Of a stretch of 45,695 bases of DNA, positions 14,489 to 36,111 are shown in pieces; position 1 is the first letter of the stretch, and each line of letters starts with the position of its first letter. The stretch is taken from the NCBI GenBank assembly GCA_032325415.1, contig GCA_032325415.1_4119.2. The stretch is one strand, 5' to 3'. Under the pieces are notes generated by a model that was not told the origin of the DNA, did not search any database, and saw nothing but the letters and a program-made list of their open reading frames with translations. Both the position numbers and the translations under genes were made by a program. This stretch comes from a phage.

Positions 14489-14658
14489 TTCAAGTAGAAT
14501 TATCAGTACTGAAAGATCTGTTTTATCGGTTAGGTACTACTGGAGAGTATCCTAAAAGTGATACCGCAAAACTTTTTGTATCACTCGACTTATGGCAACG
14601 CGAACAATTAGTAATGTCCTGGCGTAAAGGTAAAGCAGATAGCGAGGTGAAAGCATGA
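14485..14658 (+). CDS. small protein (57 aa)
   Basis: ATG 14485 overlaps upstream stop (ATGA) with SD CAGGAG inside the upstream ORF; not in track. Confidence 0.45.
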   Translation: MIQVELSVLKDLFYRLGTTGEYPKSDTAKLFVSLDLWQREQLVMSWRKGKADSEVKA

Positions 14659-14804
14659 AAGAATTCTTATTCGAAGTAGTGTTTCAAGGTGTCGGTAGTA
14701 ACCAACTGATTCGCTCAAGTGGTTATAATGTTAACCAGGCATGGAATAACATTAAACAAATGTACCCGAACGCTATCACCTATCGCAACCCGAAAGAAGT
14801 TTAA
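14655..14804 (+). CDS. small protein (49 aa)
   Basis: ATG 14655 overlaps upstream stop (ATGA); SD GAGGTG; not in track. Confidence 0.45.
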   Translation: MKEFLFEVVFQGVGSNQLIRSSGYNVNQAWNNIKQMYPNAITYRNPKEV

Positions 14805-14812
14805 AAATATTT

Positions 14813-14900
14813 GAAAAAGGGATTGACTCCGGTCAGTCCCTTTGCTATTATATACGCATAGAAACAAATCAGCCCACAGGGTGCATAAATGTATCTATTG
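14813..14900 (+). repeat. R module copy 2 (terminator-like hairpin, embedded promoter, conserved core)
   Basis: AAAAAGGGATTGACTCCGGTCAGTCCCTTT hairpin; -35 TTGACT 14823-14828, -10 TATTAT 14846-14851; core AGCCCACAGGGTGCATAAATGTATCT. Confidence 0.65.
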
Positions 14901-14935
14901 TTTGCTGGTGGCTAGTACTGAAAACTATTTTTAAA

Positions 14936-15117
14936 AAGTACTTGCATTGTACTTAGAATCAAGTATAATGTTTTACATCAGGACGGGGAACGAAACAAGT
15001 AACCCCGTTAAGTAGTCCAGGAGTAAGACATAAGAAAACCTCCCCTGATAAAATAGTTTGACAATAGAAAGTAAAAGAGTATAATACTTACATCAACCAC
15101 TGATAAGGAAACATAAA
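14936..15117 (+). repeat. dual-promoter leader module, copy 2 (near-identical to 3990-4172)
   Basis: Promoter A (-35 TTGCAT 14942-14947, -10 TATAAT 14964-14969), hairpin ACGGGGAA...CCCCGT, conserved AAGTAGTCCAGGAGTAAGACATAAGAAAACCTCCCCTGATAAAATAG, promoter B (-35 TTGACA 15058-15063, -10 TATAAT 15080-15085). Confidence 0.7.
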
Positions 15118-15393
15118 ATGCGGATTCTACTGACAGCTAACGAAATCGAACAAGTACTGACTACTAACCTGGAAGACTGGAAACGTGAAGCAGATATCCA
15201 GGCGGTTCAACGGCTTAACGATGAGTTAACGCCGGATGACTTAAGCAAGATTGTAGATCCTCAATTCTACGAAGATATCCACGACACCGCGTTAAGCGTC
15301 GAGGATGTACTAGATAAGCACTACATTGATATTGATTTGCAGGTTTACGGTCGTAAAAACTTTATCACTATTCACGACATTTACAATAATTAA
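15118..15393 (+). CDS. hypothetical acidic protein (91 aa)
   Basis: SD TAAGGAAA then ATG 15118; track ORF. Confidence 0.65.
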   Translation: MRILLTANEIEQVLTTNLEDWKREADIQAVQRLNDELTPDDLSKIVDPQFYEDIHDTALSVEDVLDKHYIDIDLQVYGRKNFITIHDIYNN

Positions 15394-15396
15394 GTA

Positions 15397-15424
15397 TTGA
15401 CAAAGTATCTTAGTACTGTATAAT
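15397..15424 (+). promoter_or_regulatory. sigma70-like promoter (cassette type)
   Basis: -35 TTGACA 15397-15402, 16-bp spacer with AGTACTG, -10 TATAAT 15419-15424; hairpin GAGGGGAA-ACGG-TTCCCCTC. Confidence 0.65.
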
Positions 15425-15481
15425 AGTTTACATCAAGTGAGGGGAAACGGTTCCCCTCCTAACAAAGAGAGAGAAATAAAA

Positions 15482-15805
15482 ATGGCTATGATCCTTACCC
15501 AGAAAGTGGAACTGAAAATTGTAACCTCCTTTGACATTAACGTTAATCGGTGGACTGATTCACACGGCAATACTTACCACTCTTGCTACGTGTCTGCTTT
15601 AATTGGCGACCGCTGGGAAGACCTGGGACACGAAACCTTTACATACGGTTACGGTACACAAGGCGAATACACGGGCTTGGAGATCATTAAAGAAACCGTT
15701 ATAGGTTTCAACCCGAAAGAAAAAGTTATTCACCGCATCGAGGAAGAGATCAACAAAGAAATAACAGTTCGCTACCACGATGTAAAACGTAAGAAAGACA
15801 TGTAA
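15482..15805 (+). CDS. hypothetical protein (107 aa), distant paralog of 8879..9223
   Basis: ATG 15482 in frame with track ORF 15437 whose start is in the leader hairpin. Confidence 0.65.
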   Translation: MAMILTQKVELKIVTSFDINVNRWTDSHGNTYHSCYVSALIGDRWEDLGHETFTYGYGTQGEYTGLEIIKETVIGFNPKEKVIHRIEEEINKEITVRYHDVKRKKDM

Positions 15806-15819
15806 TAGAATCCATTTAA

Positions 15820-15856
15820 AGTACTATTTGACATTGCCCAGATAGTACTTTATAAT
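15820..15856 (+). promoter_or_regulatory. promoter with operator-like inverted repeat AGTACTAT-N14-ATAGTACT
   Basis: AGTACTAT 15820-15827, -35 TTGACA 15828-15833, ATAGTACT 15842-15849, -10 TATAAT 15851-15856. Confidence 0.6.
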
Positions 15857-15900
15857 AGACTCTAACTTGTAGTACTAACTCAACTAATAGGATGTATACC

Positions 15901-16296
15901 ATGATTACTAAATTCTACGCTACCCGTGAAGCTGCCCGTATTGTTGCACGCGAGGAAGGAGCAGCATTTAAAGACATGGGCAAAGATGCACCGAAAGGCC
16001 AACGCTGGGCCGTACAGTTCAAAGAGATCTCTGATATTGTGAATTCACCTGAGCCAGTACTAACAGCAGCAGAACTAAAACGAGCGGATTTACTGGCGTC
16101 AATACTTGATGCACAAGATGAGTTTATCGCTGATTCTGATATCAAAGTACAGACAAACCATACCGCTTGGACTCACGCGGATCACCTGGCAAACCTGAAG
16201 CGTCCAAGTGAACTGGTACGCAACCAGAAAGAGATCCGACACGACCGTAAGGGTAATCGTGTAACAGTATACAGTAAACGCCGCCAGGTTATCTAA
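15901..16296 (+). CDS. hypothetical protein (131 aa), paralog of 3163..3429
   Basis: ATG 15901 chosen by paralog alignment and SD AGGAT spacing; track start 15892 is an alternative. Confidence 0.6.
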   Translation: MITKFYATREAARIVAREEGAAFKDMGKDAPKGQRWAVQFKEISDIVNSPEPVLTAAELKRADLLASILDAQDEFIADSDIKVQTNHTAWTHADHLANLKRPSELVRNQKEIRHDRKGNRVTVYSKRRQVI

Positions 16297-16318
16297 TAAC
16301 TTGCAGTACTAACAACAC

Positions 16319-16344
16319 GGCGGGATCAGTTCCCGCCTTTTTTA
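16319..16344 (+). terminator. rho-independent terminator
   Basis: GGCGGGA-TCAG-TTCCCGCC followed by TTTTTTAT. Confidence 0.8.
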
Positions 16345-16357
16345 TAGGACAAACAAA

Positions 16358-16612
16358 ATGATTAAGGTTCAACTATATAAAGATAATATCTTGCGGGTAC
16401 ACTATAAAGCCCCTCAGAGAATCATCACAAAGGCCGTACAGCTTGCTAATGAGTTTATTAATGGTAACCTATTACCTAGGAAGTTAAGCAACGGGAAACT
16501 GCGTGTAATCGACGTGGACACTAACAACAGGATAGTAATCGAGAACACAGGAAAGATAAACCTTTATGAGCATCAACAATACAATAAGAAAATAAAACTA
16601 ATATCACGTTGA
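16358..16612 (+). CDS. hypothetical protein (84 aa)
   Basis: Track ORF downstream of terminator; weak SD. Confidence 0.5.
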   Translation: MIKVQLYKDNILRVHYKAPQRIITKAVQLANEFINGNLLPRKLSNGKLRVIDVDTNNRIVIENTGKINLYEHQQYNKKIKLISR

Positions 16613-16637
16613 CAGTACTCAAATGTTTTAGTACTAT
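16609..16637 (+). promoter_or_regulatory. putative sigma70-like promoter
   Basis: -35 TTGACA 16609-16614, 17-bp spacer, -10 TACTAT 16632-16637. Confidence 0.45.
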
Positions 16638-16666
16638 ATGTACATACCAACACGGGGAGAAACAAA

Positions 16667-16909
16667 ATGATTACTTTAGAAAAACGTATCAAAGAAACTA
16701 CATCGCTGGTGGAACTGTTAACAGTACTCAAATGTAAAACTACTCGGTTTAGTACACCGGACTTTATTAATATGGTTGATGTTAATGGTCGCTATCGTAT
16801 CACGGTCGAACAAGGAGCGGCGAAAGTATTCAGTACTAAAAACACTAAGGAAGTGATTCACGCTGTAAGTGTTAAAAAAGTAGTTGCCATTGATAGTAAA
16901 GTACTGTAA
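16667..16909 (+). CDS. hypothetical protein (80 aa)
   Basis: SD GGGGAGA then ATG 16667; track ORF. Confidence 0.55.
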   Translation: MITLEKRIKETTSLVELLTVLKCKTTRFSTPDFINMVDVNGRYRITVEQGAAKVFSTKNTKEVIHAVSVKKVVAIDSKVL

Positions 16910-16940
16910 GATAGTTTCATTAACTCAAGGAGAACATGCA

Positions 16941-17525
16941 ATGCGTAATTATACTAAATTCATCCGTACCCTGTCAGAAATGGAAACCAACAAAGAGATC
17001 CTTTCAGCTTGTCGGTTAGCTGGTCTGGAGATCATCGGTGCGGGTTCTTCCCGTATTGTATTCGCTTTAAATGATCGGTTAGTGATTAAGGTCGCGAATT
17101 GTGATGCGGGTGTAGAACAAAATGAAACTGAATGTAAGGTATGGAATTTTTTAGATTATGACCGCCCTCAATTGAAACAGTACTTTGCAAAGGTGCATAT
17201 GCATTTATGCGATCCTGATAATATGTTTATCGTTATGGATCGGTTGAGTACTGCAAGTAAAGGCAGTGTAAAGCACGTAAACGCGTGCAATGAATTAAAG
17301 TACAATATTAAACGTAATGCCATTGAACGCCAGCACCGCTTTGCTGATGCACTACAACACGTTGATGATACATTATCAACACTAACGATAAGAGATATCA
17401 GAAAACAGAATATCGGCCAGGATCGTAATGGCCTTATTAAAGTACTTGATTACGGTTTAACCCGCAATATCTGGAATCAGTACTATAAAAAGCGTGATGT
17501 AGAAGCAAGTAAGGTAACACGATAA
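16941..17525 (+). CDS. putative small protein-kinase-like protein (194 aa)
   Basis: SD AAGGAG then ATG 16941; motifs IGAGSSRIVF (Gly-rich loop), LVIKVA (VAIK-like Lys), IRDIRKQNIG (HRD-x-K-x-x-N-like catalytic loop), KVLDYGL (DFG-like). Confidence 0.55.
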   Translation: MRNYTKFIRTLSEMETNKEILSACRLAGLEIIGAGSSRIVFALNDRLVIKVANCDAGVEQNETECKVWNFLDYDRPQLKQYFAKVHMHLCDPDNMFIVMDRLSTASKGSVKHVNACNELKYNIKRNAIERQHRFADALQHVDDTLSTLTIRDIRKQNIGQDRNGLIKVLDYGLTRNIWNQYYKKRDVEASKVTR

Positions 17526-17526
17526 A

Positions 17527-17612
17527 AAAAGATTAAAAAAGGGATTGACTCCGGTCAGTCCCTTTGCTATTATATATTCATTGAGAGATAACTCACTGAC
17601 CCATAGGGTGCG
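17527..17612 (+). repeat. R module copy 3 (terminator-like hairpin, embedded promoter, conserved core)
   Basis: AAAAAAGGGATTGACTCCGGTCAGTCCCTTT; -35 TTGACT 17545-17550, -10 TATTAT 17568-17573; core GACCCATAGGGTGCGGAAGTGTATCT. Confidence 0.65.
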
Positions 17613-17666
17613 GAAGTGTATCTATTATATAAGTATTCAGTACTGAAAACTATTTTTAAAAAGTAC

Positions 17667-17694
17667 TTGCATTGTACTTAGAATCAAGTATAAT
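17667..17694 (+). promoter_or_regulatory. sigma70-like promoter (cassette type)
   Basis: -35 TTGCAT 17667-17672, 16-bp spacer, -10 TATAAT 17689-17694; hairpin GAGAGGGGAA-ATGG-TTCTCCCTC. Confidence 0.65.
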
Positions 17695-17747
17695 GTTTTA
17701 TATCGAGAGGGGAAATGGTTCTCCCTCAAAGAACAAGGAATAAAATC

Positions 17748-17969
17748 ATGACTACAATGACTTGCATTCACGCTTCAAACCTGCTTAATGATGCGGCCTT
17801 TAATGTTGAAACAGAATATCAATGTTATCGGGATGAAAATAAAAAAGTTTTTGTAGTTGATAATAATGGTTTCCATATTGAATTGCAATCCGGCTTCACT
17901 GGCGTTGATGGTAAATCAGTATGGGGAGTACAGGATGATAAAGGCACATATCATTTTAAACGTAATTAA
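17748..17969 (+). CDS. hypothetical protein (73 aa)
   Basis: SD AAGGAAT then ATG 17748, in frame with track ORF 17715. Confidence 0.65.
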   Translation: MTTMTCIHASNLLNDAAFNVETEYQCYRDENKKVFVVDNNGFHIELQSGFTGVDGKSVWGVQDDKGTYHFKRN

Positions 17970-17972
17970 GTA

Positions 17973-18000
17973 TTGACAAAGTATATCAGTACTGTATAAT
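17973..18000 (+). promoter_or_regulatory. sigma70-like promoter (cassette type)
   Basis: -35 TTGACA 17973-17978, 16-bp spacer with CAGTACTG, -10 TATAAT 17995-18000; hairpin GGGGAGAA-TAG-TTCTCCCC. Confidence 0.65.
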
Positions 18001-18053
18001 AGTTTACATCAAGGGGAGAATAGTTCTCCCCACCAATAAAAGGAAACAAAATT

Positions 18054-18326
18054 ATGTCCAGCTACTCCGCTACTATGATTATTAAAGATATGAACGGTAA
18101 TCCTACTTCTGCTGGTGGATCATTTGGTAACATTAACTTAGATGGGCGGTTATCAATTGAATCAGCCATCAATGCCGCGAAAGAAGTTTTTAAGAATGAA
18201 TGTACTGTAAGCAAGCTGGATTATATGGGCTTCGCTATCGAGAAAACTAATCGTTTTGTGGACTACAAAAAACCACTGATGATCGATACTAACCTGAAAG
18301 CTAACGAAGTGGAATACTTATTATGA
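18054..18326 (+). CDS. hypothetical protein (90 aa)
   Basis: SD AAAGGAAA then ATG 18054; track ORF. Confidence 0.65.
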   Translation: MSSYSATMIIKDMNGNPTSAGGSFGNINLDGRLSIESAINAAKEVFKNECTVSKLDYMGFAIEKTNRFVDYKKPLMIDTNLKANEVEYLL

Positions 18327-18514
18327 CAGTAGAAGAAGTTAAAAAAGTACTGGCAGTACTACGCTATCATAATCATTGCAAGGTGAAGAATGATCCTGAT
18401 TATGTTGATTCATCCCTGGAGGAAGACACATTAAACGCAATAAGCCATATGCAAAAAATGCTTAAGCGTATGACCGAAAAGAACAGGCCAGACTATATCG
18501 GAAATAAAATTTAA
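18323..18514 (+). CDS. hypothetical protein (63 aa)
   Basis: ATG overlaps upstream stop (ATGA), translational coupling; track ORF. Confidence 0.55.
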   Translation: MTVEEVKKVLAVLRYHNHCKVKNDPDYVDSSLEEDTLNAISHMQKMLKRMTEKNRPDYIGNKI

Positions 18515-18521
18515 AAAGTAC

Positions 18522-18549
18522 TTGCATTGTAGTTAGATTAACGTATAAT
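18522..18549 (+). promoter_or_regulatory. sigma70-like promoter (cassette type)
   Basis: -35 TTGCAT 18522-18527, 16-bp spacer, -10 TATAAT 18544-18549; hairpin GCGGGGGAA-TAG-TTCTCCCGC. Confidence 0.65.
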
Positions 18550-18600
18550 GTTTTACATAGAGCGGGGGAATAGTTCTCCCGCCAGTCCAGGAGATACACC

Positions 18601-18864
18601 ATGAACACTATCGAAATCACTATCAATGCACACGTATACGACAACGTAGTACTGCAAACTACTATGACCGCCAATGATACCAGTACTTTGCGGAATGCCG
18701 TTGTAAGTGCTGTATGTGCTGCAATCGGTGATGTAGCCCTGGAAAATGCAGAACACATCAACAACGGTTTCACTATGTGCAAACGTGATAACGCAAAACA
18801 TATCATCGTAGAAGGTTACGGCGGTGTAGAATTTAATGTTTATATGAAAAAAGTACTTGCATAA
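18601..18864 (+). CDS. hypothetical protein (87 aa)
   Basis: SD CCAGGAGA then ATG 18601; last codons overlap the next -35. Confidence 0.65.
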   Translation: MNTIEITINAHVYDNVVLQTTMTANDTSTLRNAVVSAVCAAIGDVALENAEHINNGFTMCKRDNAKHIIVEGYGGVEFNVYMKKVLA

Positions 18865-18884
18865 TAACTAAAACAAAGTATAAT
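18857..18884 (+). promoter_or_regulatory. sigma70-like promoter (cassette type)
   Basis: -35 TTGCAT 18857-18862, 16-bp spacer, -10 TATAAT 18879-18884; hairpin GGGGGAG-ATAT-CCTCCCCC. Confidence 0.65.
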
Positions 18885-18931
18885 GTTTTGCATAGGGGGA
18901 GATATCCTCCCCCACTAAAAGGAGTAATAAA

Positions 18932-19156
18932 ATGGCTAACTTTGATGAACTGATGCGGGAAGTAGCTAACCTGGCAGAAGAGAAGAAATCATTCGATTCT
19001 ATCTATAACACCGCTCACCGTGATTCAGTACTGGCATGTACTCAGGATCAAAAAGATGAACTAATCGCCACCTATCATGAAGCATGGAAGTACTACCGAC
19101 AATGGGAGAAAGAAGAAAGTGAGTCTACCATTGACGGCCTCAATAATCTAATCTAA
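18932..19156 (+). CDS. hypothetical acidic protein (74 aa)
   Basis: SD AAAGGAGT then ATG 18932; track ORF. Confidence 0.65.
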   Translation: MANFDELMREVANLAEEKKSFDSIYNTAHRDSVLACTQDQKDELIATYHEAWKYYRQWEKEESESTIDGLNNLI

Positions 19157-19168
19157 AAGTTTTATTTC

Positions 19169-19205
19169 AGTACTATTGACATAGCTTGATAGTACTGATG
19201 TAATA
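19169..19205 (+). promoter_or_regulatory. promoter with operator-like inverted repeat AGTACTAT-N12-ATAGTACT
   Basis: AGTACTAT 19169-19176, -35 TTGACA 19176-19181, ATAGTACT 19189-19196, -10-like TGTAAT about 19199-19204. Confidence 0.55.
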
Positions 19206-19232
19206 ACTTTACTAACTACAAGGGGAAACATA

Positions 19233-19490
19233 ATGGAACAGTTCACACAATATCGGGTAAATCCTCAAGCTATGGCCTACGTAGAAGACCATAAAACATT
19301 ACCAGTACTGCAACCAGTTAAAGGCCATATCTATCGTGCTATGTCGTGGAGTACGGCCCAGGATGGCTATAAAACCGTAGCCGTTGGTATGTATTGCGGG
19401 AATGGTGAATGGTTTGATCCAAATAATCCGGTAGCCATTGACAGTACTGAAAAAATGAAATGGGCCGACTACATCGAAGATATTTCATAA
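19233..19490 (+). CDS. hypothetical protein (85 aa)
   Basis: SD AAGGGGA then ATG 19233; track ORF. Confidence 0.6.
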   Translation: MEQFTQYRVNPQAMAYVEDHKTLPVLQPVKGHIYRAMSWSTAQDGYKTVAVGMYCGNGEWFDPNNPVAIDSTEKMKWADYIEDIS

Positions 19491-19496
19491 AAAGAA

Positions 19497-19585
19497 TAAA
19501 AAAGGGATTGACTCCGGTCAGTCCCTTTGCTATTATATACGCATAGACAAAAACTAGCCCACAGGGTGCATAGGTGTATCTAAAA
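19497..19585 (+). repeat. R module copy 4 (terminator-like hairpin, embedded promoter, conserved core)
   Basis: AAAAAAGGGATTGACTCCGGTCAGTCCCTTT; -35 TTGACT 19508-19513, -10 TATTAT 19531-19536; core AGCCCACAGGGTGCATAGGTGTATCT. Confidence 0.65.
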
Positions 19586-19670
19586 TATATAGTTAATAAC
19601 GGTGAGTAACTATCTGCTGGTGGATGTACTGCCAGTACTCAAGGGAACTAAAACTATTAATAAAAAAGTA

Positions 19671-19699
19671 TTGACAAAGTATATCAGTACTGCGATAAT
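19671..19699 (+). promoter_or_regulatory. sigma70-like promoter
   Basis: -35 TTGACA 19671-19676, 17-bp spacer with CAGTACTG, -10 GATAAT 19694-19699. Confidence 0.55.
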
Positions 19700-19752
19700 G
19701 TATCTCGTAGGGCGGCAATGGTGCGACGGCCCACAAAGTTAGGAGATTCAAA

Positions 19753-20085
19753 ATGAGTACTTCAATCGCTATCGTTAAAGCTTTCATCCGTACCAATGTT
19801 TCATCTGTATTCATCGACGGACTGGATCGTGAAGTAGAATACTCAATCATTATCGCACAGACTGCAAACGGTGCTCGGTATATCCTCAATGATAGTGAAG
19901 CAAATCACTACTACTTCACTAAAGCTACTGGCTTTAAACGCATCGATGCCGATGTAGTATACGCTAAGATGAATAAGCTGGTAGACAAGATTAACGCTAA
20001 AGGCACTATTGATTTACAGTACTGGACCGAAACCGATCCAGAATATGGATCTCACCGCTACCTGAATCCAGGTATCAAAATGTAA
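19753..20085 (+). CDS. hypothetical protein (110 aa)
   Basis: SD TAGGAG then ATG 19753; track ORF; overlapping minus-strand ORF 19593..19889 rejected. Confidence 0.65.
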   Translation: MSTSIAIVKAFIRTNVSSVFIDGLDREVEYSIIIAQTANGARYILNDSEANHYYFTKATGFKRIDADVVYAKMNKLVDKINAKGTIDLQYWTETDPEYGSHRYLNPGIKM

Positions 20086-27481: not shown

Positions 27482-27815
27482 TATACAACTCAAGGTATAT
27501 AAATCATTTGAACATACATATATCAAAAGTAGTCTATGTAGAGATGTAATGGATTACAAGGGTAAGCCATTCACAATTACCTATGATTCTTATGTTAGTG
27601 ATTTATATATATCATTTGTTAATTACGAAAATAAAATATACAAGCACGTTGATATTAAAGATTTAAGTACTTTATCACCAGAGGAATACTTTCAGGAATC
27701 ATTAGTATGGGATTTAGAGTTTCCTATGCCATTAGTACATAAGATGATAGTACTAATGAAAGAATCTAAACAGGAGCCTAATGGTGATTATGAAGAACAC
27801 ACAGTTGAGTATTAA
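27471..27815 (+). CDS. family-B paralog (114 aa)
   Basis: Track ORF; motif LSPEEYFQESLVWDLEFP. Confidence 0.6.
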   Translation: MKTNIQLKVYKSFEHTYIKSSLCRDVMDYKGKPFTITYDSYVSDLYISFVNYENKIYKHVDIKDLSTLSPEEYFQESLVWDLEFPMPLVHKMIVLMKESKQEPNGDYEEHTVEY

Positions 27816-28185
27816 AAGTACTGATAATATTAAGAGTTATACAAGCTCAAGTACTGTGACAATCGAAGTGAATTCTATTAATGCTGGTAATGCAGTAGAT
27901 AAGTTCTTTATTGCTCAAGGGTACAGGAAAGATATTCATCAATATTGTTCAGTATATGGGGAGTACAATAGTACTGAAGATATAATTTATTGGTCAACAC
28001 ATCAAGATTATCTAACTAAAATTGGAGTCCCAGATGTTAGTACTTTATCTGAAGAAGAATACTTTCAGTACAGCTTAATATGTGATGTACCTATACCTTT
28101 AGGGTTAATCAAGGGTATACAGGAAGAGGTTCATAAGCTTAAATCCATGAGTAAAGGTACTTTCATTAGAACAGTGCAATACTAG
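27781..28185 (+). CDS. family-B paralog (134 aa)
   Basis: Track ORF; motif LSEEEYFQYSLICDVPIP. Confidence 0.6.
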   Translation: MVIMKNTQLSIKSTDNIKSYTSSSTVTIEVNSINAGNAVDKFFIAQGYRKDIHQYCSVYGEYNSTEDIIYWSTHQDYLTKIGVPDVSTLSEEEYFQYSLICDVPIPLGLIKGIQEEVHKLKSMSKGTFIRTVQY

Positions 28186-28186
28186 C

Positions 28187-28215
28187 TTGACAGTACTTTT
28201 CATTACTGATATAGT
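28187..28215 (+). promoter_or_regulatory. internal sigma70-like promoter within array
   Basis: -35 TTGACA 28187-28192, 17-bp spacer, -10 TATAGT 28210-28215. Confidence 0.5.
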
Positions 28216-28244
28216 ACACTAACGTTAATCATAGGGTAAAAATT

Positions 28245-28490
28245 ATGTTAAATTTTTTAAATTTCCTTATCGTTTTGTGTATTGTTCTTGGGATTGCACC
28301 ATTTGTATTGTATTTCATGGATTCAGATGAAATGCAGAAGATGAATTGTACAAGGACAGGACAGAGTAGAGAAGAGACGATTCTTATGCCTGTTACGGTT
28401 ATTGTTAACAACATGCCCATTACAAACATGGTCCCTACCCTAACGACAACGTACCAGTACTCTTGTGCTGACGGAGAGAGGTGGAGATGA
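28245..28490 (+). CDS. small membrane protein (81 aa) with N-terminal transmembrane helix
   Basis: MLNFLNFLIVLCIVLGIAPFVLYF hydrophobic N-terminus; own promoter; track ORF. Confidence 0.55.
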   Translation: MLNFLNFLIVLCIVLGIAPFVLYFMDSDEMQKMNCTRTGQSREETILMPVTVIVNNMPITNMVPTLTTTYQYSCADGERWR

Positions 28491-28807
28491 AATTTAATAT
28501 TGCAAAAACATCGAGTATATGTATTTTTGGTTATGCTGATGAGTTAGGTGATATTGACATTCTTTTGTACAAAAAGGATGGTGTTATGCATTTCAAGTAC
28601 CAGGATGAAGAGGCAGACAATTATCTTTTACCTAATTTAGTACAAATGCAGGAAGAGGAATTATTCCAGTACAGCTTAGTATACGACATTGATATTTGCA
28701 CGATGCCAGTACTAATTAGTATTCAAAAAGTGATGCTCGATATGTATGATAAGCTAATACAAGGTATGTCAGGGAGAATCATTGAAATCGATATACAAGA
28801 CAATTAA
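28487..28807 (+). CDS. family-B paralog (106 aa; track start 28481 is GTG)
   Basis: ATGA overlap; motif QEEELFQYSLVYDIDI. Confidence 0.6.
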   Translation: MKFNIAKTSSICIFGYADELGDIDILLYKKDGVMHFKYQDEEADNYLLPNLVQMQEEELFQYSLVYDIDICTMPVLISIQKVMLDMYDKLIQGMSGRIIEIDIQDN

Positions 28808-29000
28808 TCAAGAATGGAAGACCCAAAAGTACAGGGAATTCAACAGGAATTTTACAAAAGATGCATTGAATTTAAAAACAACAGAGTTTGATATGTTTAT
28901 TTTTCTTGGAACACGTTCACAAGAACAATTTGTTCATTATTATATAAATTCGTTGCGAACGGAGATAGTATGCAAAACACAGGGTATTATAAAAAGGTAA
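28782..29000 (+). CDS. family-A-like small paralog (72 aa)
   Basis: Track ORF; LGTRSQEQFVHYYINSLRTEI. Confidence 0.55.
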   Translation: MKSIYKTINQEWKTQKYREFNRNFTKDALNLKTTEFDMFIFLGTRSQEQFVHYYINSLRTEIVCKTQGIIKR

Positions 29001-29236
29001 ACCAATATTTGTACGCTACAAAGTACAGGGATTTTTGTTTAAAGGGTGGTGATGAAGATTTTTCTTTGCGATTATCAGAATTTAATCTGTTATTTTATCT
29101 TGGTACAAAAGAACAAGAAGAAATGGCACAGAAATTTATCAAGCACCTTGTACAAAAAATTAATATGCAAATTTTGATGCTTAAGATACAGAATGAGATA
29201 AATGAATATGAATCCAGAAATAGTTCAGGATCTTAA
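28970..29236 (+). CDS. family-A-like small paralog (88 aa)
   Basis: Track ORF; LGTKEQEEMAQKFIKHLVQKI. Confidence 0.55.
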   Translation: MQNTGYYKKVNQYLYATKYRDFCLKGGDEDFSLRLSEFNLLFYLGTKEQEEMAQKFIKHLVQKINMQILMLKIQNEINEYESRNSSGS

Positions 29237-29594
29237 AAAAGTAATATTTCTTTTGAATACCAGAAGTGAATTGTATACAGAGTTAAAAGAGATTAATGCA
29301 TTTTATCAGAATTTTGTAATCCAAGAGTTCAGTGATTTAATTACAGATGCATTATTTGAATTCTCGGAGAAATACAAAGGTTCAGAGTTCAGTGTTAAGA
29401 ATGTTATTCGTCCAAGTACAAGGAAAATTATATTATCACATTTTACATTTGACAATAAAGATTTATTCAGTCATAATCCAAGTACAGCTTTATATTTTAT
29501 TCCTGATTCAGACAAAAATCATCCTATTCATTACGGATGGATTTTGTCATATATAGTACAAGGAAAGGAGTATCCTATTAAATGGAAAGATTAG
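29202..29594 (+). CDS. hypothetical protein (130 aa), no family motif recognised
   Basis: Track ORF within array. Confidence 0.5.
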   Translation: MNMNPEIVQDLKKVIFLLNTRSELYTELKEINAFYQNFVIQEFSDLITDALFEFSEKYKGSEFSVKNVIRPSTRKIILSHFTFDNKDLFSHNPSTALYFIPDSDKNHPIHYGWILSYIVQGKEYPIKWKD

Positions 29595-29743
29595 GGCGAT
29601 TAGATTATTACACAATTAATACAAATTATTTGTTGCGTAATATAAAATCCGATTACAAAATATGGATAAAGAACAGAGATAGCATGTGTTATGAATTTTA
29701 TTTAGATTATGCTATCAAACGATTTTTAAGAGAAGAACATTAA
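29582..29743 (+). CDS. possible small protein (53 aa), not in track
   Basis: ATG 29582 to TAA 29741-29743, which overlaps the next ATG (TAATG); fills an otherwise empty gap. Confidence 0.35.
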   Translation: MERLGRLDYYTINTNYLLRNIKSDYKIWIKNRDSMCYEFYLDYAIKRFLREEH

Positions 29744-29946
29744 TGCAAAAGATTAATACGATAACATTAAATGCATTACAGGATTCATTATTAGATAGTA
29801 TTAAGATGTATTACAATATACATTTGAAGGGTGGTATTGATAATTACGATTATTATTTGAGTTTAATTACATTTGAGCACCTTTCAGTACAGGACAGGAT
29901 TTTACATCCTACAAATCCTAGGTATCCATCGATAGGTAAATTATGA
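29743..29946 (+). CDS. hypothetical protein (67 aa)
   Basis: Track ORF; start overlaps the 29582..29743 stop; next gene joins by ATGA. Confidence 0.5.
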   Translation: MQKINTITLNALQDSLLDSIKMYYNIHLKGGIDNYDYYLSLITFEHLSVQDRILHPTNPRYPSIGKL

Positions 29947-30491
29947 ATGAGATAGAGTTATTAGCACACAAGATAAGTACAATAATGCTTATCCTCAATA
30001 ACAACCATCCTATATCGCATATAGATGGAATCCTGAGTCAGAGGACAGGTGGTAGTTTATATTTGTCCATAAACGCAGATATCGCAAGGAAATACATTGA
30101 TATCGATGTTGAAATCGAATATGATACAACGGGGATTGTTGATGTAGGTGCATTAATCAGTTCAAATCCAGTATCAGCATCCCCATTGACCAAAGATGTT
30201 AGTACAGGATTCGAAGGATATTTGTGGTACAATACCAATGATGATTATTTTATATATCAGCATTCCAATACAAATTATGATGAAGACAAATTTCAGTTCA
30301 TAGACCCTTATGATGAAGCTGGCGTATTCCAACAATCATTAATCACAAAACCGCATGAGATGATGTATCTAATGTTATTCAGTACAATGCATTTGAATTC
30401 ATTAATTAAAGGTTTAAAATTTTATATTCAATTAAATTTAGTCCATGTAGTTTATGATTTATTAATGCAAGGATATAGTTATGAAGTATAA
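29943..30491 (+). CDS. family-B-like paralog (182 aa), degenerate motif
   Basis: Track ORF; DEAGVFQQSLITKPHEMMYLML. Confidence 0.55.
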   Translation: MNEIELLAHKISTIMLILNNNHPISHIDGILSQRTGGSLYLSINADIARKYIDIDVEIEYDTTGIVDVGALISSNPVSASPLTKDVSTGFEGYLWYNTNDDYFIYQHSNTNYDEDKFQFIDPYDEAGVFQQSLITKPHEMMYLMLFSTMHLNSLIKGLKFYIQLNLVHVVYDLLMQGYSYEV

Positions 30492-30792
30492 AATGATGTA
30501 TACCCCAGATATGATTTATGTTGAATTAGAAGATGATGACGATGGGTGGAATTTGATTTATTCAAGAAGTTCAGGTTGGTACATGGCACATTTAAATGAT
30601 TCGATAGTTACAGATTATTTTGTAGATTTCAATACATTATCCGATGAAGAATTGTTCCAACAGCAATTAGTGATTGACACGGGTGGTTATGATGTCTTAT
30701 TATTAAAAAAGATACAGAAAGCTGTTATTGATTTTAAGCCCATGATATGGCAAAGGAAATATTATGACCTCGAAGTACCGTACCAGCAATGA
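30481..30792 (+). CDS. family-B paralog (103 aa)
   Basis: Track ORF; LSDEELFQQQLVIDTGGYDVLLLKKIQ. Confidence 0.6.
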   Translation: MKYKMMYTPDMIYVELEDDDDGWNLIYSRSSGWYMAHLNDSIVTDYFVDFNTLSDEELFQQQLVIDTGGYDVLLLKKIQKAVIDFKPMIWQRKYYDLEVPYQQ

Positions 30793-31330
30793 AATTCAGT
30801 ACACCTACGCTAATGCAATCCTTATGGGACAAAAGTTAGCTTGTATTGTTGCAGCCTTATATAATGCCCAGAAATATCACAAGCGTCATTTCCACAAATG
30901 TATTGGTATTATTCCATCGAAGTACAATACATATATTGTGTGCACGAGTCATTTTGATAAACGATTCAATACACCTGATACCCCAAATTCCCGTAGTGTT
31001 ATTGGTCTTTTAGATTTCGCCCCTGGTGCTGTTATTGGAAAGAATGATTTAGAGTACGCATGGTATAATAAAAATTCCCCATTAGTAATGGTAACATATG
31101 ATAAAGAAACGAACAAAACAATAGAGTACAATACATATAAATCAGAGGAAGAATTTTTCCAAGGTTCATTGCTTGTACCAGTGCGTTTATTGTTTTATAA
31201 TGTCATAATGAGTACAGTACACAATAGTCCATTACACAAGAATCACAAAATTAATTTCAATTTTTGTGCTTATGCGATTGATGGTGTATATGAGTGTTTA
31301 ATGGAGGTATTGAGTTATGAAGCTGAATAA
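30764..31330 (+). CDS. family-B paralog (188 aa)
   Basis: Track ORF; SEEEFFQGSLLVPVRLL. Confidence 0.6.
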   Translation: MTSKYRTSNEIQYTYANAILMGQKLACIVAALYNAQKYHKRHFHKCIGIIPSKYNTYIVCTSHFDKRFNTPDTPNSRSVIGLLDFAPGAVIGKNDLEYAWYNKNSPLVMVTYDKETNKTIEYNTYKSEEEFFQGSLLVPVRLLFYNVIMSTVHNSPLHKNHKINFNFCAYAIDGVYECLMEVLSYEAE

Positions 31331-31658
31331 TACATTTGATATTAATAAGTTAAGAGAATGGTTTTATAGTATTGAAATTGAAGCCATCCCGTATCATAGA
31401 TATGAACAATATAATTTAACCAGTATTGATATCAGTGAGTTGTACGCGTATTATCAAAGTGCATTAGAGATGCATAAGTTATTTTTGAGTACAGATTTTG
31501 TTCTAAATTACAATTTTGAGGAATTTAATAATTATAATTTAGTACAGAAATATGTAGTAGCAAAGTACATGTACCTTCAAGGAATTACAAGTATAGTGGA
31601 ATTCAATACAGTCCTTGCTTTAGTTGAGGTAATTTTATGCAGTACATGTATGATTTAG
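31317..31658 (+). CDS. family-B-like paralog (113 aa), degenerate motif
   Basis: Track ORF; SELYAYYQSALEMHKLF. Confidence 0.5.
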   Translation: MKLNNTFDINKLREWFYSIEIEAIPYHRYEQYNLTSIDISELYAYYQSALEMHKLFLSTDFVLNYNFEEFNNYNLVQKYVVAKYMYLQGITSIVEFNTVLALVEVILCSTCMI

Positions 31659-32143
31659 AGTTCAGCTTAGATGCTGCATTTAAATATGTTCACAAGATAG
31701 AAACAATATACAGTACATTATGTGCAATAAAATCAGTAACAGAAGAGCTTGATGTTGGTGAAAGGTATCAGGTGTGGAATAATTCATTTTTTAATAAAGA
31801 ACATTCTGCGACGGTATTTTATATTTTAGCATTTAATCCCAGCAATTGTTACCCAGAGAAGCATGAACGTTATCCAAATGACGACATGTGGTTTGAGTAC
31901 AAAGAAGATGCTGATATGTCGTCAATTGAAGTTCCTGATGATTTTAATGCACAAGATTTAACAGAAGAGTGGTGGTTCCAGCAGAATTTAGTACATGATG
32001 ATATTGATTTATTTTTCTATATTGCATTTAAAATGCTTTATCACAACAATATAGTTAAAGAAAGTGTATCGTTTTCATGTCTATATATTGATGATTTGTA
32101 CAATGAAATTCAAATAAACATGCCCAGAACGCCTGTATCGTAA
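31637..32143 (+). CDS. family-B paralog (168 aa)
   Basis: Track ORF; LTEEWWFQQNLVHDDIDLFF. Confidence 0.6.
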   Translation: MQYMYDLEFSLDAAFKYVHKIETIYSTLCAIKSVTEELDVGERYQVWNNSFFNKEHSATVFYILAFNPSNCYPEKHERYPNDDMWFEYKEDADMSSIEVPDDFNAQDLTEEWWFQQNLVHDDIDLFFYIAFKMLYHNNIVKESVSFSCLYIDDLYNEIQINMPRTPVS

Positions 32144-32169
32144 GATATGGGCTTTTTTTCGTTTTGGTA

Positions 32170-32198
32170 TTGACATAGAAGACCAAAGCTGTTATCAT
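32170..32198 (+). promoter_or_regulatory. internal sigma70-like promoter within array
   Basis: -35 TTGACA 32170-32175, 17-bp spacer, -10 TATCAT 32193-32198; preceded by GCCCA...TGGGC hairpin plus T7 run (terminator-like). Confidence 0.45.
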
Positions 32199-32226
32199 GT
32201 GTATTCATTTTAAAGGAGAACATATA

Positions 32227-32739
32227 GTGAGTTTCATAATCCCAAGTACATACGAAGATGCATCAAGTGCAGTTCATAAGATTCATTATATTTTTAATTT
32301 AATTATTAGATCTGCAAAAATTAAAATGTATGCACCTCTTGTGACAAATAATCGAAATGAAGAAATTTTTATTAGCACAGACAAAATTATTTTTCCATAT
32401 TTCAATGAAGATAGATTGTGGTTCATACATTTAGCTGCATTACAAAAATATAAGATGTCAATTCGTAATAATTTGGTTATACCGTTATATCATCCAGATA
32501 TTGGAGAGGATGAGTATTTTCAGTACAGTACAGTACATCGCCATGAAGATATCTTTGTTGCTATGCTTATTGCTAAATTGAACACCGTTGATTTGGAGTA
32601 CCACAAATACAATAATAAATCATGTAAGATCATAATCCCTGCATTCATAGCTCTTTATGATTATGTGGTGCATAACAAAAAAGATGATACATATGCTTTC
32701 AATGAAGAGTATTTGGATTTTTTTAAGGATAACATATGA
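32227..32739 (+). CDS. family-B paralog (about 170 aa; GTG start, track start 32197)
   Basis: SD AAAGGAGAA precedes GTG 32227; motif IGEDEYFQYSTVHRHEDIFV. Confidence 0.55.
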   Translation: MSFIIPSTYEDASSAVHKIHYIFNLIIRSAKIKMYAPLVTNNRNEEIFISTDKIIFPYFNEDRLWFIHLAALQKYKMSIRNNLVIPLYHPDIGEDEYFQYSTVHRHEDIFVAMLIAKLNTVDLEYHKYNNKSCKIIIPAFIALYDYVVHNKKDDTYAFNEEYLDFFKDNI

Positions 32740-33275
32740 GCAGTACAACAGTATCAAAAGTACAGAAAGCAATGTCATTCAATGAAATTGGTACATTTAA
32801 AGATAAGATCATTGATTGCCTTGAATACATGATTTGTAGTAATATCGAAAGTATCGAGATATTTAACAAGACAAATCGCTCTTACCATATGATGTACATT
32901 GCAAACAATAATGGTATCATTCCATTTATTTCGGATAGTACAATATGGTACGCATGTGATACGAAAAAAACCACAATAGGTTTACATTTATTTGAGACAC
33001 ATTATGATCTAATTATTCCTGAACATTGTATGCAAGAAGAAGAATATTTTCAAATGCAATGTATACATTCACCATTAGTGTTGTTTAGTTTATATATTAT
33101 ACCTTATATCACCAAATGTGTTCATGACAATAAAGCTCCGTGGAATCATGAATTTGTATCGTTGAAGTTATTGTATAATGTATTAGTAGAATATTATGAT
33201 TACAGGCACAATGGTACAATCAGTGATGTATGGGATTTTGAATCGCTAAGGGTGAAAACATACACAGGTGAATGA
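32736..33275 (+). CDS. family-B paralog (179 aa)
   Basis: ATGA overlap; CMQEEEYFQMQCIHSPLVLF. Confidence 0.6.
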   Translation: MSSTTVSKVQKAMSFNEIGTFKDKIIDCLEYMICSNIESIEIFNKTNRSYHMMYIANNNGIIPFISDSTIWYACDTKKTTIGLHLFETHYDLIIPEHCMQEEEYFQMQCIHSPLVLFSLYIIPYITKCVHDNKAPWNHEFVSLKLLYNVLVEYYDYRHNGTISDVWDFESLRVKTYTGE

Positions 33276-33891
33276 TATGACCAGAATTAAAATGTATGAT
33301 TTGATGCAGTACAGTAAAATTGCCATTCCAGTGCTTAATAAAGTGCTGGATGCATTCATTGCCAAATACCCTGAGAATTCAGTGTTATGTATTCCATTTA
33401 GTGTTCCAGATAAAGATGATATATTCCAAGTGAATGTCAGTACACGTGGTATTACATTACAGCAGAAATACATGGATACGGAATATTATGGAATAAAGTT
33501 GGATTCAGTACAGGGTTCAAAATCAGCCTATGATTTTTTTGTTCCTAATAATATAGAGTCATGGGAAACAAACATTTCAAAGAAAGATGAAAATGATGTT
33601 CCTATTAGTGGTGTGTTCAACAATAAAGTTTTTTATTATTACGAAACCGACAAATTCCCTGAAGAGTTATATTACAATTCAGAAATGAATGAAGATGTAG
33701 ATGCATTCATGTTTCAATTATCTTTAGTACATGATATCATTGATGTTAAAGAGTTAAGAGCAGAAATCAATTTAGCTAAAGAGTTATCGGACATGCTGCC
33801 ACCGTTTAGTATGCTTTTTTGTGAAGGTGGTTATTTTTCAAAAGAAGTGTTTGAACATTTCGTAGATGTTGTAAAAGGGTTGGATATATAG
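33268..33891 (+). CDS. family-B paralog (207 aa)
   Basis: Track ORF; DVDAFMFQLSLVHDIIDVKELRAEI. Confidence 0.6.
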   Translation: MNDMTRIKMYDLMQYSKIAIPVLNKVLDAFIAKYPENSVLCIPFSVPDKDDIFQVNVSTRGITLQQKYMDTEYYGIKLDSVQGSKSAYDFFVPNNIESWETNISKKDENDVPISGVFNNKVFYYYETDKFPEELYYNSEMNEDVDAFMFQLSLVHDIIDVKELRAEINLAKELSDMLPPFSMLFCEGGYFSKEVFEHFVDVVKGLDI

Positions 33892-33892
33892 T

Positions 33893-34087
33893 ATGCTTAC
33901 AGTTGATGTTAAACAAAAATACCGTAAGTTTGATTGGTTCACCGACAGTTTCCAGCTTGAATTATTACATTTGAATATCTGTGAAACATTATGTGCAGAA
34001 ACACAAGATGAATTTGATGATAGAGTGATGAACATAGTAATGCTTTCTTGCTTTAAACATTTTGGTTATTTTTTCGGACAGAATTGA
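33893..34087 (+). CDS. hypothetical protein (64 aa)
   Basis: Track ORF within array. Confidence 0.45.
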   Translation: MLTVDVKQKYRKFDWFTDSFQLELLHLNICETLCAETQDEFDDRVMNIVMLSCFKHFGYFFGQN

Positions 34088-34095
34088 GGTAAAAA

Positions 34096-34611
34096 ATGCA
34101 TCAACACAAGCATCATTCATATGATTTTGCAATTAACATTATGAAGTTCATTCGAGCGTTGGAGGATGGGAAGCTTAGTCATAAGTACACCAAAGTGGGT
34201 GACAATTGGTTCAGAAATGATGATGAGTTCAGAAGTCATAAGATTGTTTACAGCAATAATTACAGTGCCAATTACCTACAAGATGTAGTGATGTGTTTTG
34301 AATACGTGTTGCAGTTCAGGGGTTCAATCCAGGATGAGTTGATGGAGCACATGTACATCAGATACCTTCCAATGCTCAAAGATGAAAATGTATTATTAAA
34401 TTCAATATACCAACGAGTTCGTGAAATTGAGTGCAGGGATATATTAGATACAGAAGAATCGTATTTCCAGCAATCCCTGATTTATGCACCTGATTTATTA
34501 CAGGTACATAATTTGTTTAATACATTACGTCAAAACATCAGTACAGACATATTTTTGTCATTATCGGATTATGATACATTTGTCAAAGATTTAGAGGAAA
34601 TAGGTTTATGA
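34096..34611 (+). CDS. family-B paralog (171 aa)
   Basis: SD GAGG then ATG 34096; LDTEESYFQQSLIYAPDLLQVHNLF. Confidence 0.6.
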   Translation: MHQHKHHSYDFAINIMKFIRALEDGKLSHKYTKVGDNWFRNDDEFRSHKIVYSNNYSANYLQDVVMCFEYVLQFRGSIQDELMEHMYIRYLPMLKDENVLLNSIYQRVREIECRDILDTEESYFQQSLIYAPDLLQVHNLFNTLRQNISTDIFLSLSDYDTFVKDLEEIGL

Positions 34612-34952
34612 GTCGATTTTCGGTTTATATAGTAAACGTCAGTAAAGATGGTAGTTTAATTGAATTTGATGTAGTTGATAACAATGATAATTCATATGGT
34701 ATTAAGGTACAGGACAATGATGTACAGTTCAGTACAAGGACAAATTTTGAGAATCCAGTCCAAGTTCCGAATTTCATAGAAGATGAAGCTGCACGATTCC
34801 AATACGAAACGGCATATGACAATGTACATATGCATATTATTATGCAACAGAGTTTAGTTCAATTAGTTCCTTTGTTCAGACAAAATATATATGTACATGA
34901 AGTGTCGATTAATGGCATTCAAAGTTCCGTTTTGTTCGGTACAAATATGTAA
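34608..34952 (+). CDS. family-B paralog (114 aa)
   Basis: ATGA overlap; EDEAARFQYETAYDNVHMHII. Confidence 0.55.
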   Translation: MSRFSVYIVNVSKDGSLIEFDVVDNNDNSYGIKVQDNDVQFSTRTNFENPVQVPNFIEDEAARFQYETAYDNVHMHIIMQQSLVQLVPLFRQNIYVHEVSINGIQSSVLFGTNM

Positions 34953-34962
34953 GGAAAGTACA

Positions 34963-35505
34963 ATGAGTTTATTAGATACATTAGAAAAAGACAGAAGTGC
35001 AATTAAGCGTTTAAAAGAGCAAGTACAAAAGATTGTATACAACGTTGATAAGTTTGAAGTCCCAGGAAGATTTGGTGATATTTCCCATACGGAGATCAAA
35101 TCCCTTAAGTCAGATTTGTTGATTAAAAATAAAAATGGGTTGATTTTAGTTTTGAGTTCAGATATGATGGGGGCAACACATAGTTATAATGCAGTATCGG
35201 TGCGTTCAGAGTGTGAAGGTATATATCTATCACAGGGTTTCAATAGCGAGACACAGGTTTGTTTTTGTGATGCAGTACATGACCCTATGAAGTTCACGAG
35301 AAGTGAAGCCCAAGCGTTATTAGAGCTATCAGACGAGAGTTTGTTTCAGTACAGTACAATGTATGACAATGATAAGCTTCGTTGTATGTACGCTGTAAAG
35401 CATTATACACAGGAGTTTTCTGGATTTGCATACCTTTTAGTTAGAACCAATACCAGATATATTGATATGTTAGAAGATTACATCGATAAAGTTGTTAATG
35501 TATGA
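34963..35505 (+). CDS. family-B paralog (180 aa; track start 34891)
   Basis: SD AAGGAAAG then ATG 34963; LSDESLFQYSTMYDNDKLRCMY. Confidence 0.6.
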   Translation: MSLLDTLEKDRSAIKRLKEQVQKIVYNVDKFEVPGRFGDISHTEIKSLKSDLLIKNKNGLILVLSSDMMGATHSYNAVSVRSECEGIYLSQGFNSETQVCFCDAVHDPMKFTRSEAQALLELSDESLFQYSTMYDNDKLRCMYAVKHYTQEFSGFAYLLVRTNTRYIDMLEDYIDKVVNV

Positions 35506-36102: not shown

Positions 36103-36111
36103 AGACGTTTC

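Follow-up and report, generated by a model that had tools for sequence, protein, structure and literature searches.

Can a protein that ends almost directly after its metal-binding loop be a kinase, and what would such an enzyme do for a phage? The question is raised by a small gene at positions 16,941 to 17,525 of a 45,695-nt stretch of phage DNA (NCBI GenBank assembly GCA_032325415.1, contig GCA_032325415.1_4119.2), which we analyzed at its full length and refer to as the window. The initial annotation pointed to protein-kinase-like motifs in the 194-residue product and suggested a host-manipulation enzyme, citing gp0.7 of phage T7 (the T7 kinase, T7K) as an example. We find that the gene very probably encodes a phosphotransferase of the kinase fold whose active site is intact. 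The protein retains only the first seven of the Hanks-Hunter subdomains, and belongs to a large family of miniature kinases with the same truncation.

Homology to protein kinases

Scanned as a single sequence against Pfam, the window protein finds its best match in Pkinase (PF00069; E 0.0024, 17.8 bits). Weak sequence matches in the PDB are exclusively protein kinases (82 of 82), aligned over the catalytic loop and DFG. A family profile of 13 sequences retrieves MKK4 and MKK7 from the PDB at E 1.5e-4 to 5e-4, placing profile positions 29 (the Gly loop) to 182 on MKK7 residues 21–171; extending the profile to 58 sequences improves the MKK4 match to E 4.4e-5. The PDB matches of the profiles are MAP2Ks, STK3/4, FGFR and BTK. 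All these alignments end at kinase residue 171–186, directly past DFG. Six of the 58 family members match Pkinase on their own at E<=0.01, with a best E of 5.7e-6. An NCBIfam scan returned nothing useful, and PADLOC gave weak generic kinase matches to PD-T4-6 only.

The four motifs picked out by the initial annotation are all present, in the order that it gave: IGAGSSRIVF (residues 32–41), LVIKVA (47–52), IRDIRKQNIG (150–159) and KVLDYGL (167–173). Two features that it did not mention are the alpha-C glutamate E64 and the end of the protein 24 residues after DYG. To these motifs we added residue conservation, counted in an alignment of 58 homologues with identity down to ~20%, and an AlphaFold2 model computed from the 58-sequence input; a run on 13 close homologues gave a predicted local distance difference test score (pLDDT) of 50 in the C-terminal half and was discarded. 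Residue roles are assigned by alignment to MKK4 and MKK7 and by position in the model. The resulting anatomy of the protein is as follows.

16950..17018, + strand: N-terminal extension of two helices (residues 4–12 and 17–26) preceding the kinase core; AlphaFold2 secondary structure, pLDDT 94–98
17034..17063, + strand: Gly-rich ATP-binding loop IGAGSSRIVF (32–41; subdomain I, strands 1–2), aligned with the Gly loop of MKK7; G33 in 47/58 homologues, G35 in 51/58, S36 in 56/58, R38 in 58/58
17079..17096, + strand: strand 3, LVIKVA, with the ATP-anchoring Lys50 (subdomain II); K50 in 58/58, model strand 47–52
17103..17159, + strand: helix C (55–73; subdomain III), a helix in the model, with the family signature G57-x-x-Q60-N61-x-x-E64; G57, Q60 and E64 invariant, N61 in 55/58
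17226..17252, + strand: strand 5 and hinge, FIVMDRLST (96–104; subdomain V), conserved as [FWY]-[IVL]-[VI]-M-[ED]-R; model strand 96–100
17265..17375, + strand: helices D (109–120) and E (130–145) of the reduced C-lobe, subdomain VIa; helices in the model, aligned with helix E of MKK4
17388..17417, + strand: catalytic loop IRDIRKQNIG (150–159; subdomain VIb) with Asp152 and Asn157, aligned with HRDIKPSN of MKK4; D152 and G159 each in 57/58
17439..17459, + strand: metal-binding loop KVLDYGL (167–173; subdomain VII, the DFG equivalent), 18 residues past D152; D170 and G172 in 58/58, Y/F171 in 55/58
17463..17522, + strand: short aromatic helix RNIWNQYY (175–182), a helix in the model, and basic tail KKRDVEASKVTR, in place of the activation segment and helices F–I

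The model displays the protein-kinase-like fold: a five-stranded N-lobe with helix C, a hinge, and a C-lobe bearing the catalytic and metal-binding loops. Strands 1–3 span residues 30–34, 38–42 and 47–52; the catalytic loop (150–157), two short strands, DYG (170–172) and a 12-residue basic tail are the further elements of the model.

Conservation is concentrated on the residues expected of an active site. R38, K50, G57, Q60, E64, D170 and G172 are invariant in all 58 homologues, and D152 (57/58), G159 (57/58) and S36 (56/58) are nearly so. K50 corresponds to the strand-3 lysine and E64 to the helix-C glutamate, its presumed partner; D152 and N157 form the catalytic-loop pair, and D170 is the metal-binding aspartate. 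The set of catalytic residues (Lys of strand 3, Glu of helix C, Asp and Asn of the catalytic loop, and the Asp that binds metal) is therefore complete in the window protein. Across the family the N157 column holds N, S, H or Q, and K or R is found at D+2 to D+4 of the catalytic loop in 47 of 58 members.

The HRD triplet of the catalytic loop reads I-R-D in the window protein; family members mostly have Gly at D-1 and a gap or Ile at D-2, so that the Asp alone is conserved. Since the arginine at D-1 (R151) is not conserved, the protein is a non-RD kinase, which fits the absence of a phosphorylatable activation loop.

The fold bears on another reading, that of a small-molecule kinase of the aminoglycoside/choline-kinase type, acting on a metabolite, an antibiotic, a nucleotide signal or an envelope sugar. 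The aminoglycoside phosphotransferase (APH) APH(2'') dominates the Foldseek list of PDB matches as the top fold matches, methylthioribose kinase is also listed, and one family member matches Pfam ABC1, with two more doing so weakly. The profiles, however, match protein kinases, and there is no APH match in Pfam even at E<=10. Enzymes of the APH type typically carry an H-x-D(-x4-N) motif, and they and related kinases bind their substrates through a helical C-terminal subdomain; the window protein lacks the His, the D-2 position being mostly a gap or Ile in the family, and has no such subdomain. We regard a small-molecule kinase as very unlikely.

A core that stops after subdomain VII

Subdomains I–VII are present in the window protein and VIII–XI are absent. 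The protein ends 24 residues past D170, and the activation segment, APE and helices F–I are all missing: a single 8-residue helix follows DYG, and no sequence remains to encode subdomains IX–XI, which comprise the Asp of helix F and helices G–I with their conserved Arg. Conserved positions of the post-DYG helix are [VI]177, W/Y/F178, Y/H181 and Y182, and from this pattern the aromatic helix 175–182 would pack at the position of helix F. The kinase-like enzyme proposed by the initial annotation thus stands as regards fold and catalytic apparatus, on the strength of profile searches, conservation and a confident model; it does not stand as a full bilobal kinase, most of the C-lobe being gone.

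Helix F and the C-lobe anchor the hydrophobic spines of canonical kinases. Their loss invites the explanation that catalysis is impaired, the protein being a pseudokinase, a scaffold that binds ATP or an enzyme of other chemistry, or else depending on a partner for the missing C-lobe; on its own it would then transfer little or no phosphate. The family-specific invariant or near-invariant residues R38, G57, Q60 and N61 are in keeping with this explanation, as is the hint of an oligomeric function in those relatives that carry tandem copies of the domain. Against it, K50, E64, D152, N157 and D170 are all retained under strong conservation, and such retention of all phosphotransfer residues is atypical of pseudokinases. 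A need for a partner would also sit poorly with the family loci, where no gene is conserved beside the mini-kinase. Known enzymes point both ways: the kinase fold does support other chemistry, SidJ being cited as a pseudokinase-type effector (PMC9950578), but kinase activity is very high in T7K, which is truncated in the same way (PMC13645617), and HopBF1, a minimal kinase of 176 residues in the crystal, is active (PMC9950578). A compromised or partner-dependent protein appears to us highly improbable, and we retain the reading of a phosphotransferase with an intact active site.

The gene and its selection

The reading frame is delimited by the following features.

16941..17525, + strand: coding sequence of the mini-kinase, 194 amino acids and the stop codon; a 585-nt coding sequence is annotated in the orthologues of fEgEco12, Sharanji and G17
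16927..16933, + strand: Shine-Dalgarno sequence AAGGAGA, 7 nt 5' of the ATG, read directly from the sequence

A mechanical list of open reading frames (ORFs) starts the gene at a TTG at 16884. We reject this start in favor of the ATG at 16941, because the latter has the Shine-Dalgarno sequence, three orthologues are annotated with the 585-nt coding sequence, and all homologues align from M1. Against the fEgEco12 orthologue, the ratio of non-synonymous to synonymous substitution rates (dN/dS) is ~0.04, a value based on small counts (12 synonymous and 2 non-synonymous changes). We conclude that this is a genuine gene, maintained by purifying selection. Its product has an isoelectric point (pI) of 9.2 and a basic C-terminal tail, YYKKRDVEASKVTR.

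A large family of miniature kinases

A profile search of 1.84 billion cluster representatives (clusters at 50% identity) returned 2,074 proteins at E<=1e-3, of which 245 are found at E<=1e-10. Lengths are mostly 180–260 residues. Most of the proteins end 10–45 residues after D-[YF]-G, with a median tail of 27.5 residues past the metal-binding Asp in the 58-member alignment, and the extensions of longer members are N-terminal, not C-terminal. Truncation after subdomain VII is a trait of the family. Five metagenomic relatives (P0021, P0023, P0030, P0037 and P0120; 640–2,130 residues) contain 3–6 tandem copies of the mini-kinase at a spacing of ~275 residues; these may be genuine poly-kinase proteins or the result of gene calls that were fused.

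The window protein falls into PHROG 4301, annotated as "unknown function" (E 1e-41). Precomputed Pfam domains in ~130 homologues amount to none, except for one unrelated PF06315. Among predicted viral structures, the nearest are uncharacterized jumbo-phage proteins of Klebsiella RaK2 (template-modeling (TM) score 0.85), Pectobacterium CBB (two paralogues) and Ralstonia RP12. The family is spread over jumbo and T4-like phages.

The genomic settings of family members are diverse. Close relatives lie in early small-gene arrays; at three loci the gene is a lone opposite-strand gene within a replication module, at one it stands beside T4-like structural genes, and at two it is near RNA-repair genes. 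No neighbor gene is conserved across the family loci. Since the context is not conserved, the enzyme appears to act alone.

Some of these loci place the mini-kinase within 6 kb of RNA-repair genes. Loci L008 and L009 (5717–8967) have an AAA_33/tRNA_lig_CPD kinase, a NUDIX gene, a T4 Rnl1-type ligase and HD_4; locus L010 (6348–6827 and 10135–10765) has a KTI12/AAA_33 kinase and RtcB; and locus L013 (202–873) has a PF09414 RNA ligase. The RNA-repair association is absent in four other family contexts, and a link to RNA repair as a general trait of the family was rejected, not being conserved across these four further loci.

The same contexts bear on whether the substrate might be RNA rather than protein. 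An RNA kinase, for example of tRNA, could bind RNA through a basic surface in the manner of ArkI and phosphorylate a ribose hydroxyl, perhaps in tRNA protection or repair during infection. ArkI is itself a mini enzyme resembling eukaryotic protein kinases, lacks subdomain VIII and acts on tRNA via a basic patch (PMC9095486). The window protein is basic, with a pI of 9.2 and the tail noted above, and in three of seven distinct contexts of distant members an RNA ligase (Rnl1, RtcB or PF09414) lies within 6 kb, twice together with an AAA_33 P-loop kinase. RNA ligases are common in large phages, though, so that the proximity may be due to chance, and the neighborhood is inconsistent: replication modules make up three of the loci, and RNA-repair genes are lacking near the gene in the window and in close relatives. 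The ArkI hallmarks HGQ, DFE and YKR (on the long helix of subdomain XI) are absent from the phage family, in which the catalytic Asp (57/58) and D-[YF]-G are retained and subdomains IX–XI are lacking. We therefore consider an RNA kinase improbable, and continue with a protein kinase as the preferred reading.

Phage and transcription context

The region is 95–97% identical to the ~350-kb Asteriusvirus jumbo coliphages vB_EcoM_E9.1, G17, Sharanji, SP27, slurp01 and fEgEco12. Genes around the kinase ORF are small, on the + strand and without Pfam matches, the PF24732 gene at 16358–16612 apart; a Pfam scan of ten larger window ORFs yielded no significant domains. The features relevant to transcription are these.

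16319–16337, of the + strand unit: terminator-like hairpin preceding the ParE-like gene
16358..16612, + strand: ParE-like toxin-domain gene, 84 amino acids (PF24732, E 6.4e-11, above threshold), sharing its terminator-bounded unit with the kinase
16609..16637, + strand: nearest upstream sigma-70-like promoter, TTGACA-17 nt-TACTAT, 10/12 matches in a consensus scan; candidate promoter of the 80-residue ORF and the kinase
17538..17565, + strand: strong hairpin, likely a transcription terminator, 13 nt past the stop codon; 12-bp stem, -24.6 kcal/mol, z -5.5; the equivalent site of G17 is annotated as a terminator
4113, 11356, 11939, 13051, 14089, 15058, 15397, 15828 and 17973, all + strand: nine perfect sigma-70 promoters, TTGACA-N16/17-TATAAT, from a consensus scan of the window, with 0.1 expected

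The unit thus runs from the hairpin at 16319–16337 through the ParE-like gene, the promoter at 16609–16637 and the 80-residue ORF to the kinase, its last gene, and the hairpin at 17538–17565. Six of the nine perfect promoters share an extended AGTACTGTATAAT box, and the set indicates a phage-specific family of strong early promoters. From this promoter content, the region is probably transcribed early by host RNA polymerase.

Several observations concern the surroundings of the gene. The ParE-like gene has no recognizable antitoxin adjoining it. A ParE_like gene is found directly upstream of the kinase homologue at loci L004 and L005 and four genes upstream at L006, and this linkage is kept at 40–52% kinase identity; it reflects either function or merely inherited gene order. 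The terminator-like hairpin downstream of the kinase has a 22-nt core, GGGATTGACTCCGGTCAGTCCC, which occurs in three exact + strand copies (14819–14840, 17541–17562 and 19504–19525; 0 expected). The core opens an intergenic repeat of ~170 nt that extends ~130–170 nt downstream, with copies ~80% identical; its stem holds a -35-like TTGACT, followed by TGCTATTAT, a -10-like box with an extended TG. The repeat may be a composite of terminator and promoter, or a small-RNA gene; an Rfam search of 14500–20000 gave no match. Further downstream, at 27781–45619 on the + strand, lie ~25 same-strand ORFs of 120–207 residues, several with overlapping stop and start codons; a Pfam scan of five of them gave no match at E<=0.01.

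Proposed function

We propose that the protein, a member of the protein-kinase-like superfamily, is active as a phosphotransferase that depends on ATP and Mg and is cut down to the catalytic minimum: it would combine a complete N-lobe (Gly loop, Lys50, Glu64 of helix C) with a stub of a C-lobe (helices D and E, Asp152, Asn157 and Asp170-Tyr-Gly). Having neither an activation segment nor the RD arginine, it could not be switched on by activation-loop phosphorylation, and having no helices F–I, it would offer no platform for peptide docking; the enzyme is thus most likely constitutively active and poorly selective. Host RNA polymerase would transcribe the gene from the sigma-70 promoter-rich early region of the Asteriusvirus jumbo phage, and the product would most likely phosphorylate host proteins, perhaps also phage proteins, early in infection, for takeover or counter-defense in the manner of T7K. 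The early-region context suggests the modification of host proteins during takeover that the initial annotation envisaged.

T7K provides the functional precedent. It is reported to be a dual-specificity kinase that is constitutively "on" and hyper-promiscuous; most E. coli proteins become phosphorylated, and several defense systems are inactivated (PMC13645617). In phages that encode T7K, early proteins are reported to be poorer in Ser, Thr and Tyr than late ones. By analogy, the mini-kinase plausibly works in a similar way.

A number of findings weigh against this proposal. The Pkinase score of 17.8 bits lies below the gathering threshold of 31.7 bits. Comparison of the family profile with a 23-sequence T7K alignment by hhalign gives a probability of 12.9% (P 0.0022), in register on the Gly loop, the Lys and strand 5 but in the N-lobe only, the T7K profile being shallow (homologues at least 57% identical to T7K); an unfiltered hidden Markov model alignment with T7K scores a non-significant 0.1 bits. 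The kinase core is normally anchored hydrophobically by helix F, so that loss of this helix could impair activity or require a partner protein. The promoter nearest the kinase gene is imperfect (10/12), and the early timing is read from promoter content. At another place in their genomes, the Asteriusvirus phages carry a T7K-like gene as well (PMC11895373, PMC13645617), and the mini-kinase therefore need not have the role of T7K; within the 45,695-nt window, no paralogue or T7K-like gene was found. Literature searches found no experimental work on the family and no description of a truncated family or its function. Taking both sides together, we lean towards a protein kinase that is expressed early, is constitutively active and acts on host proteins, and hold this reading with markedly less assurance than the kinase fold and active site. 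Catalytic activity, its constitutive nature, the early timing, the protein substrate and the biological role would all follow from the architecture and context described here.

A bolder scheme can be drawn up. The ~2,000 relatives of the window protein and T7K might together form one ancient phage-specific clade of "half-kinases", constitutively active, cut off after subdomain VII and with a short aromatic helix replacing helix F; in the Asteriusvirus phages this enzyme would then be a second promiscuous kinase, independent in mechanism, by which host defenses or translation are disarmed. In its radical version, members beside RNA ligases and P-loop polynucleotide kinases would now phosphorylate RNA. 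We regard this scheme as speculative and unlikely.

Previous annotation and significance

The resemblance to kinases has been noticed before. A truncated orthologue from PBECO4 is labeled "Protein kinase domain-containing protein" in UniProt, and in the paper on the Sharanji genome WNN14351.1, the orthologue there, is entered as "another protein kinase, which function is unknown", beside a separate T7K-like gene (PMC11895373). Most other records of orthologues read "hypothetical protein", and the paper on the phAPEC6 virion proteome makes no mention of the mini-kinase. The fEgEco12 orthologue carries the label "serine/threonine-protein kinase PRP4" (XBS49126.1; locus L001, 4186–4770), which we reject as an over-specific automatic label, PRP4 being no closer than dozens of other kinases. 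The protein is a sequence-distinct phage miniature kinase with the layout of T7K, and not a categorically new system.

This layout, with nothing after the metal-binding loop, is not an oddity of T7, but recurs in a large uncharacterized family without a Pfam model. If active, these proteins would mean that phages control host physiology at a further level, widespread and so far unexplored, and would be candidates for new anti-defense functions; they would also be among the smallest functional kinase cores known, and inform the minimal requirements of a kinase. Jumbo coliphages possessing both the mini-kinase and a T7K-like kinase invite a direct comparison of their roles. Should the protein be an ordinary kinase of narrow specificity, the result would amount to a routine improvement of annotation. 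A kinase in a jumbo phage is unsurprising to the specialist; the size of the family and the half-kinase architecture make it worthwhile and, after the recent T7K results, directly testable.

Comparison with known kinases

Canonical Ser/Thr/Tyr kinases (PF00069 and PF07714; MKK4, MKK7, PknB) are the best sequence matches and share with the window protein subdomains I–VII, in order and at canonical spacing. The differences are an HRD triplet in which neither His nor Arg is conserved, a replacement of the third Gly in GxGxxG, the absence of subdomains VIII–XI, and a Pfam score below threshold.

The archaeal tRNA 2'-kinases ArkI/Ark1 (PDB 7VNX, 8YV5) have HGQ for HRD and DFE for DFG and keep subdomains IX and XI with the RNA-binding motif YKR (PMC9095486), whereas the phage protein keeps the catalytic Asp (IRD) and DYG and has no subdomains IX–XI. 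APH(2'') reaches TM-scores of only 0.36–0.43 and has no sequence-profile match, and the features of APH membership are absent from the window protein. HopBF1 belongs to a family of bacterial type III effectors with a minimal protein kinase fold (PDB 6PWD, 176 residues; PMC9950578).

The comparison with T7 gp0.7 drawn by the initial annotation is supported for architecture and not for family membership. T7K belongs to PHROG 2828 (E 1.6e-169) and Pfam PF27024. A PHROG scan of the window protein gives no match to 2828 at E<=1, and PF27024 is found on none of ~130 homologues of the window protein as against all T7K homologues, as judged from precomputed annotations. With the low hhalign probability, the lack of DPV and the lack of a shut-off domain, the sequence evidence does not support membership of the T7K family.

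The two proteins differ in several elements. T7K replaces DFG with D-P-V, followed by the conserved autoinhibitory Ser216 (PMC13645617); the window protein has D170-Y-G-L-T instead, D-[YF]-G being found in 55 of 58 family members. The window protein is without the C-terminal DNA-binding shut-off domain, and the mini-kinase family has its own G-x-x-Q-N-x-x-E helix C and GSSR Gly loop.

The shortened layout is nevertheless common to both. A helical extension, longer in T7K, stands ahead of the Gly loop; the kinase domain ends ~25–29 residues past the DFG equivalent; and the canonical activation segment, APE and helices F–I are missing. The second Gly of GxG and the metal-binding Asp are separated by 135 residues in the window protein, 136 in the family median and 137 in T7K. 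The catalytic and metal-binding Asp are 18 residues apart in the window protein, the family and T7K, as they are in canonical kinases. The tail past the metal-binding Asp measures 24 residues in the window protein, 27.5 in the family median and 29 in T7K, when the T7K domain is taken as residues 1–242, the kinase-only construct that is active (PMC13645617). Among predicted structures, T7-like phage kinases (Pantoea SK1, Yersinia fPS-53, Xylella Cota) are neighbors of the mini-kinase model at TMq 0.53–0.56, closer than the cellular kinases of the PDB at 0.35–0.45. The catalytic stretch of T7K, DMHSGN...DPV, in turn resembles DMHSRN...DYG of the family member P0017.

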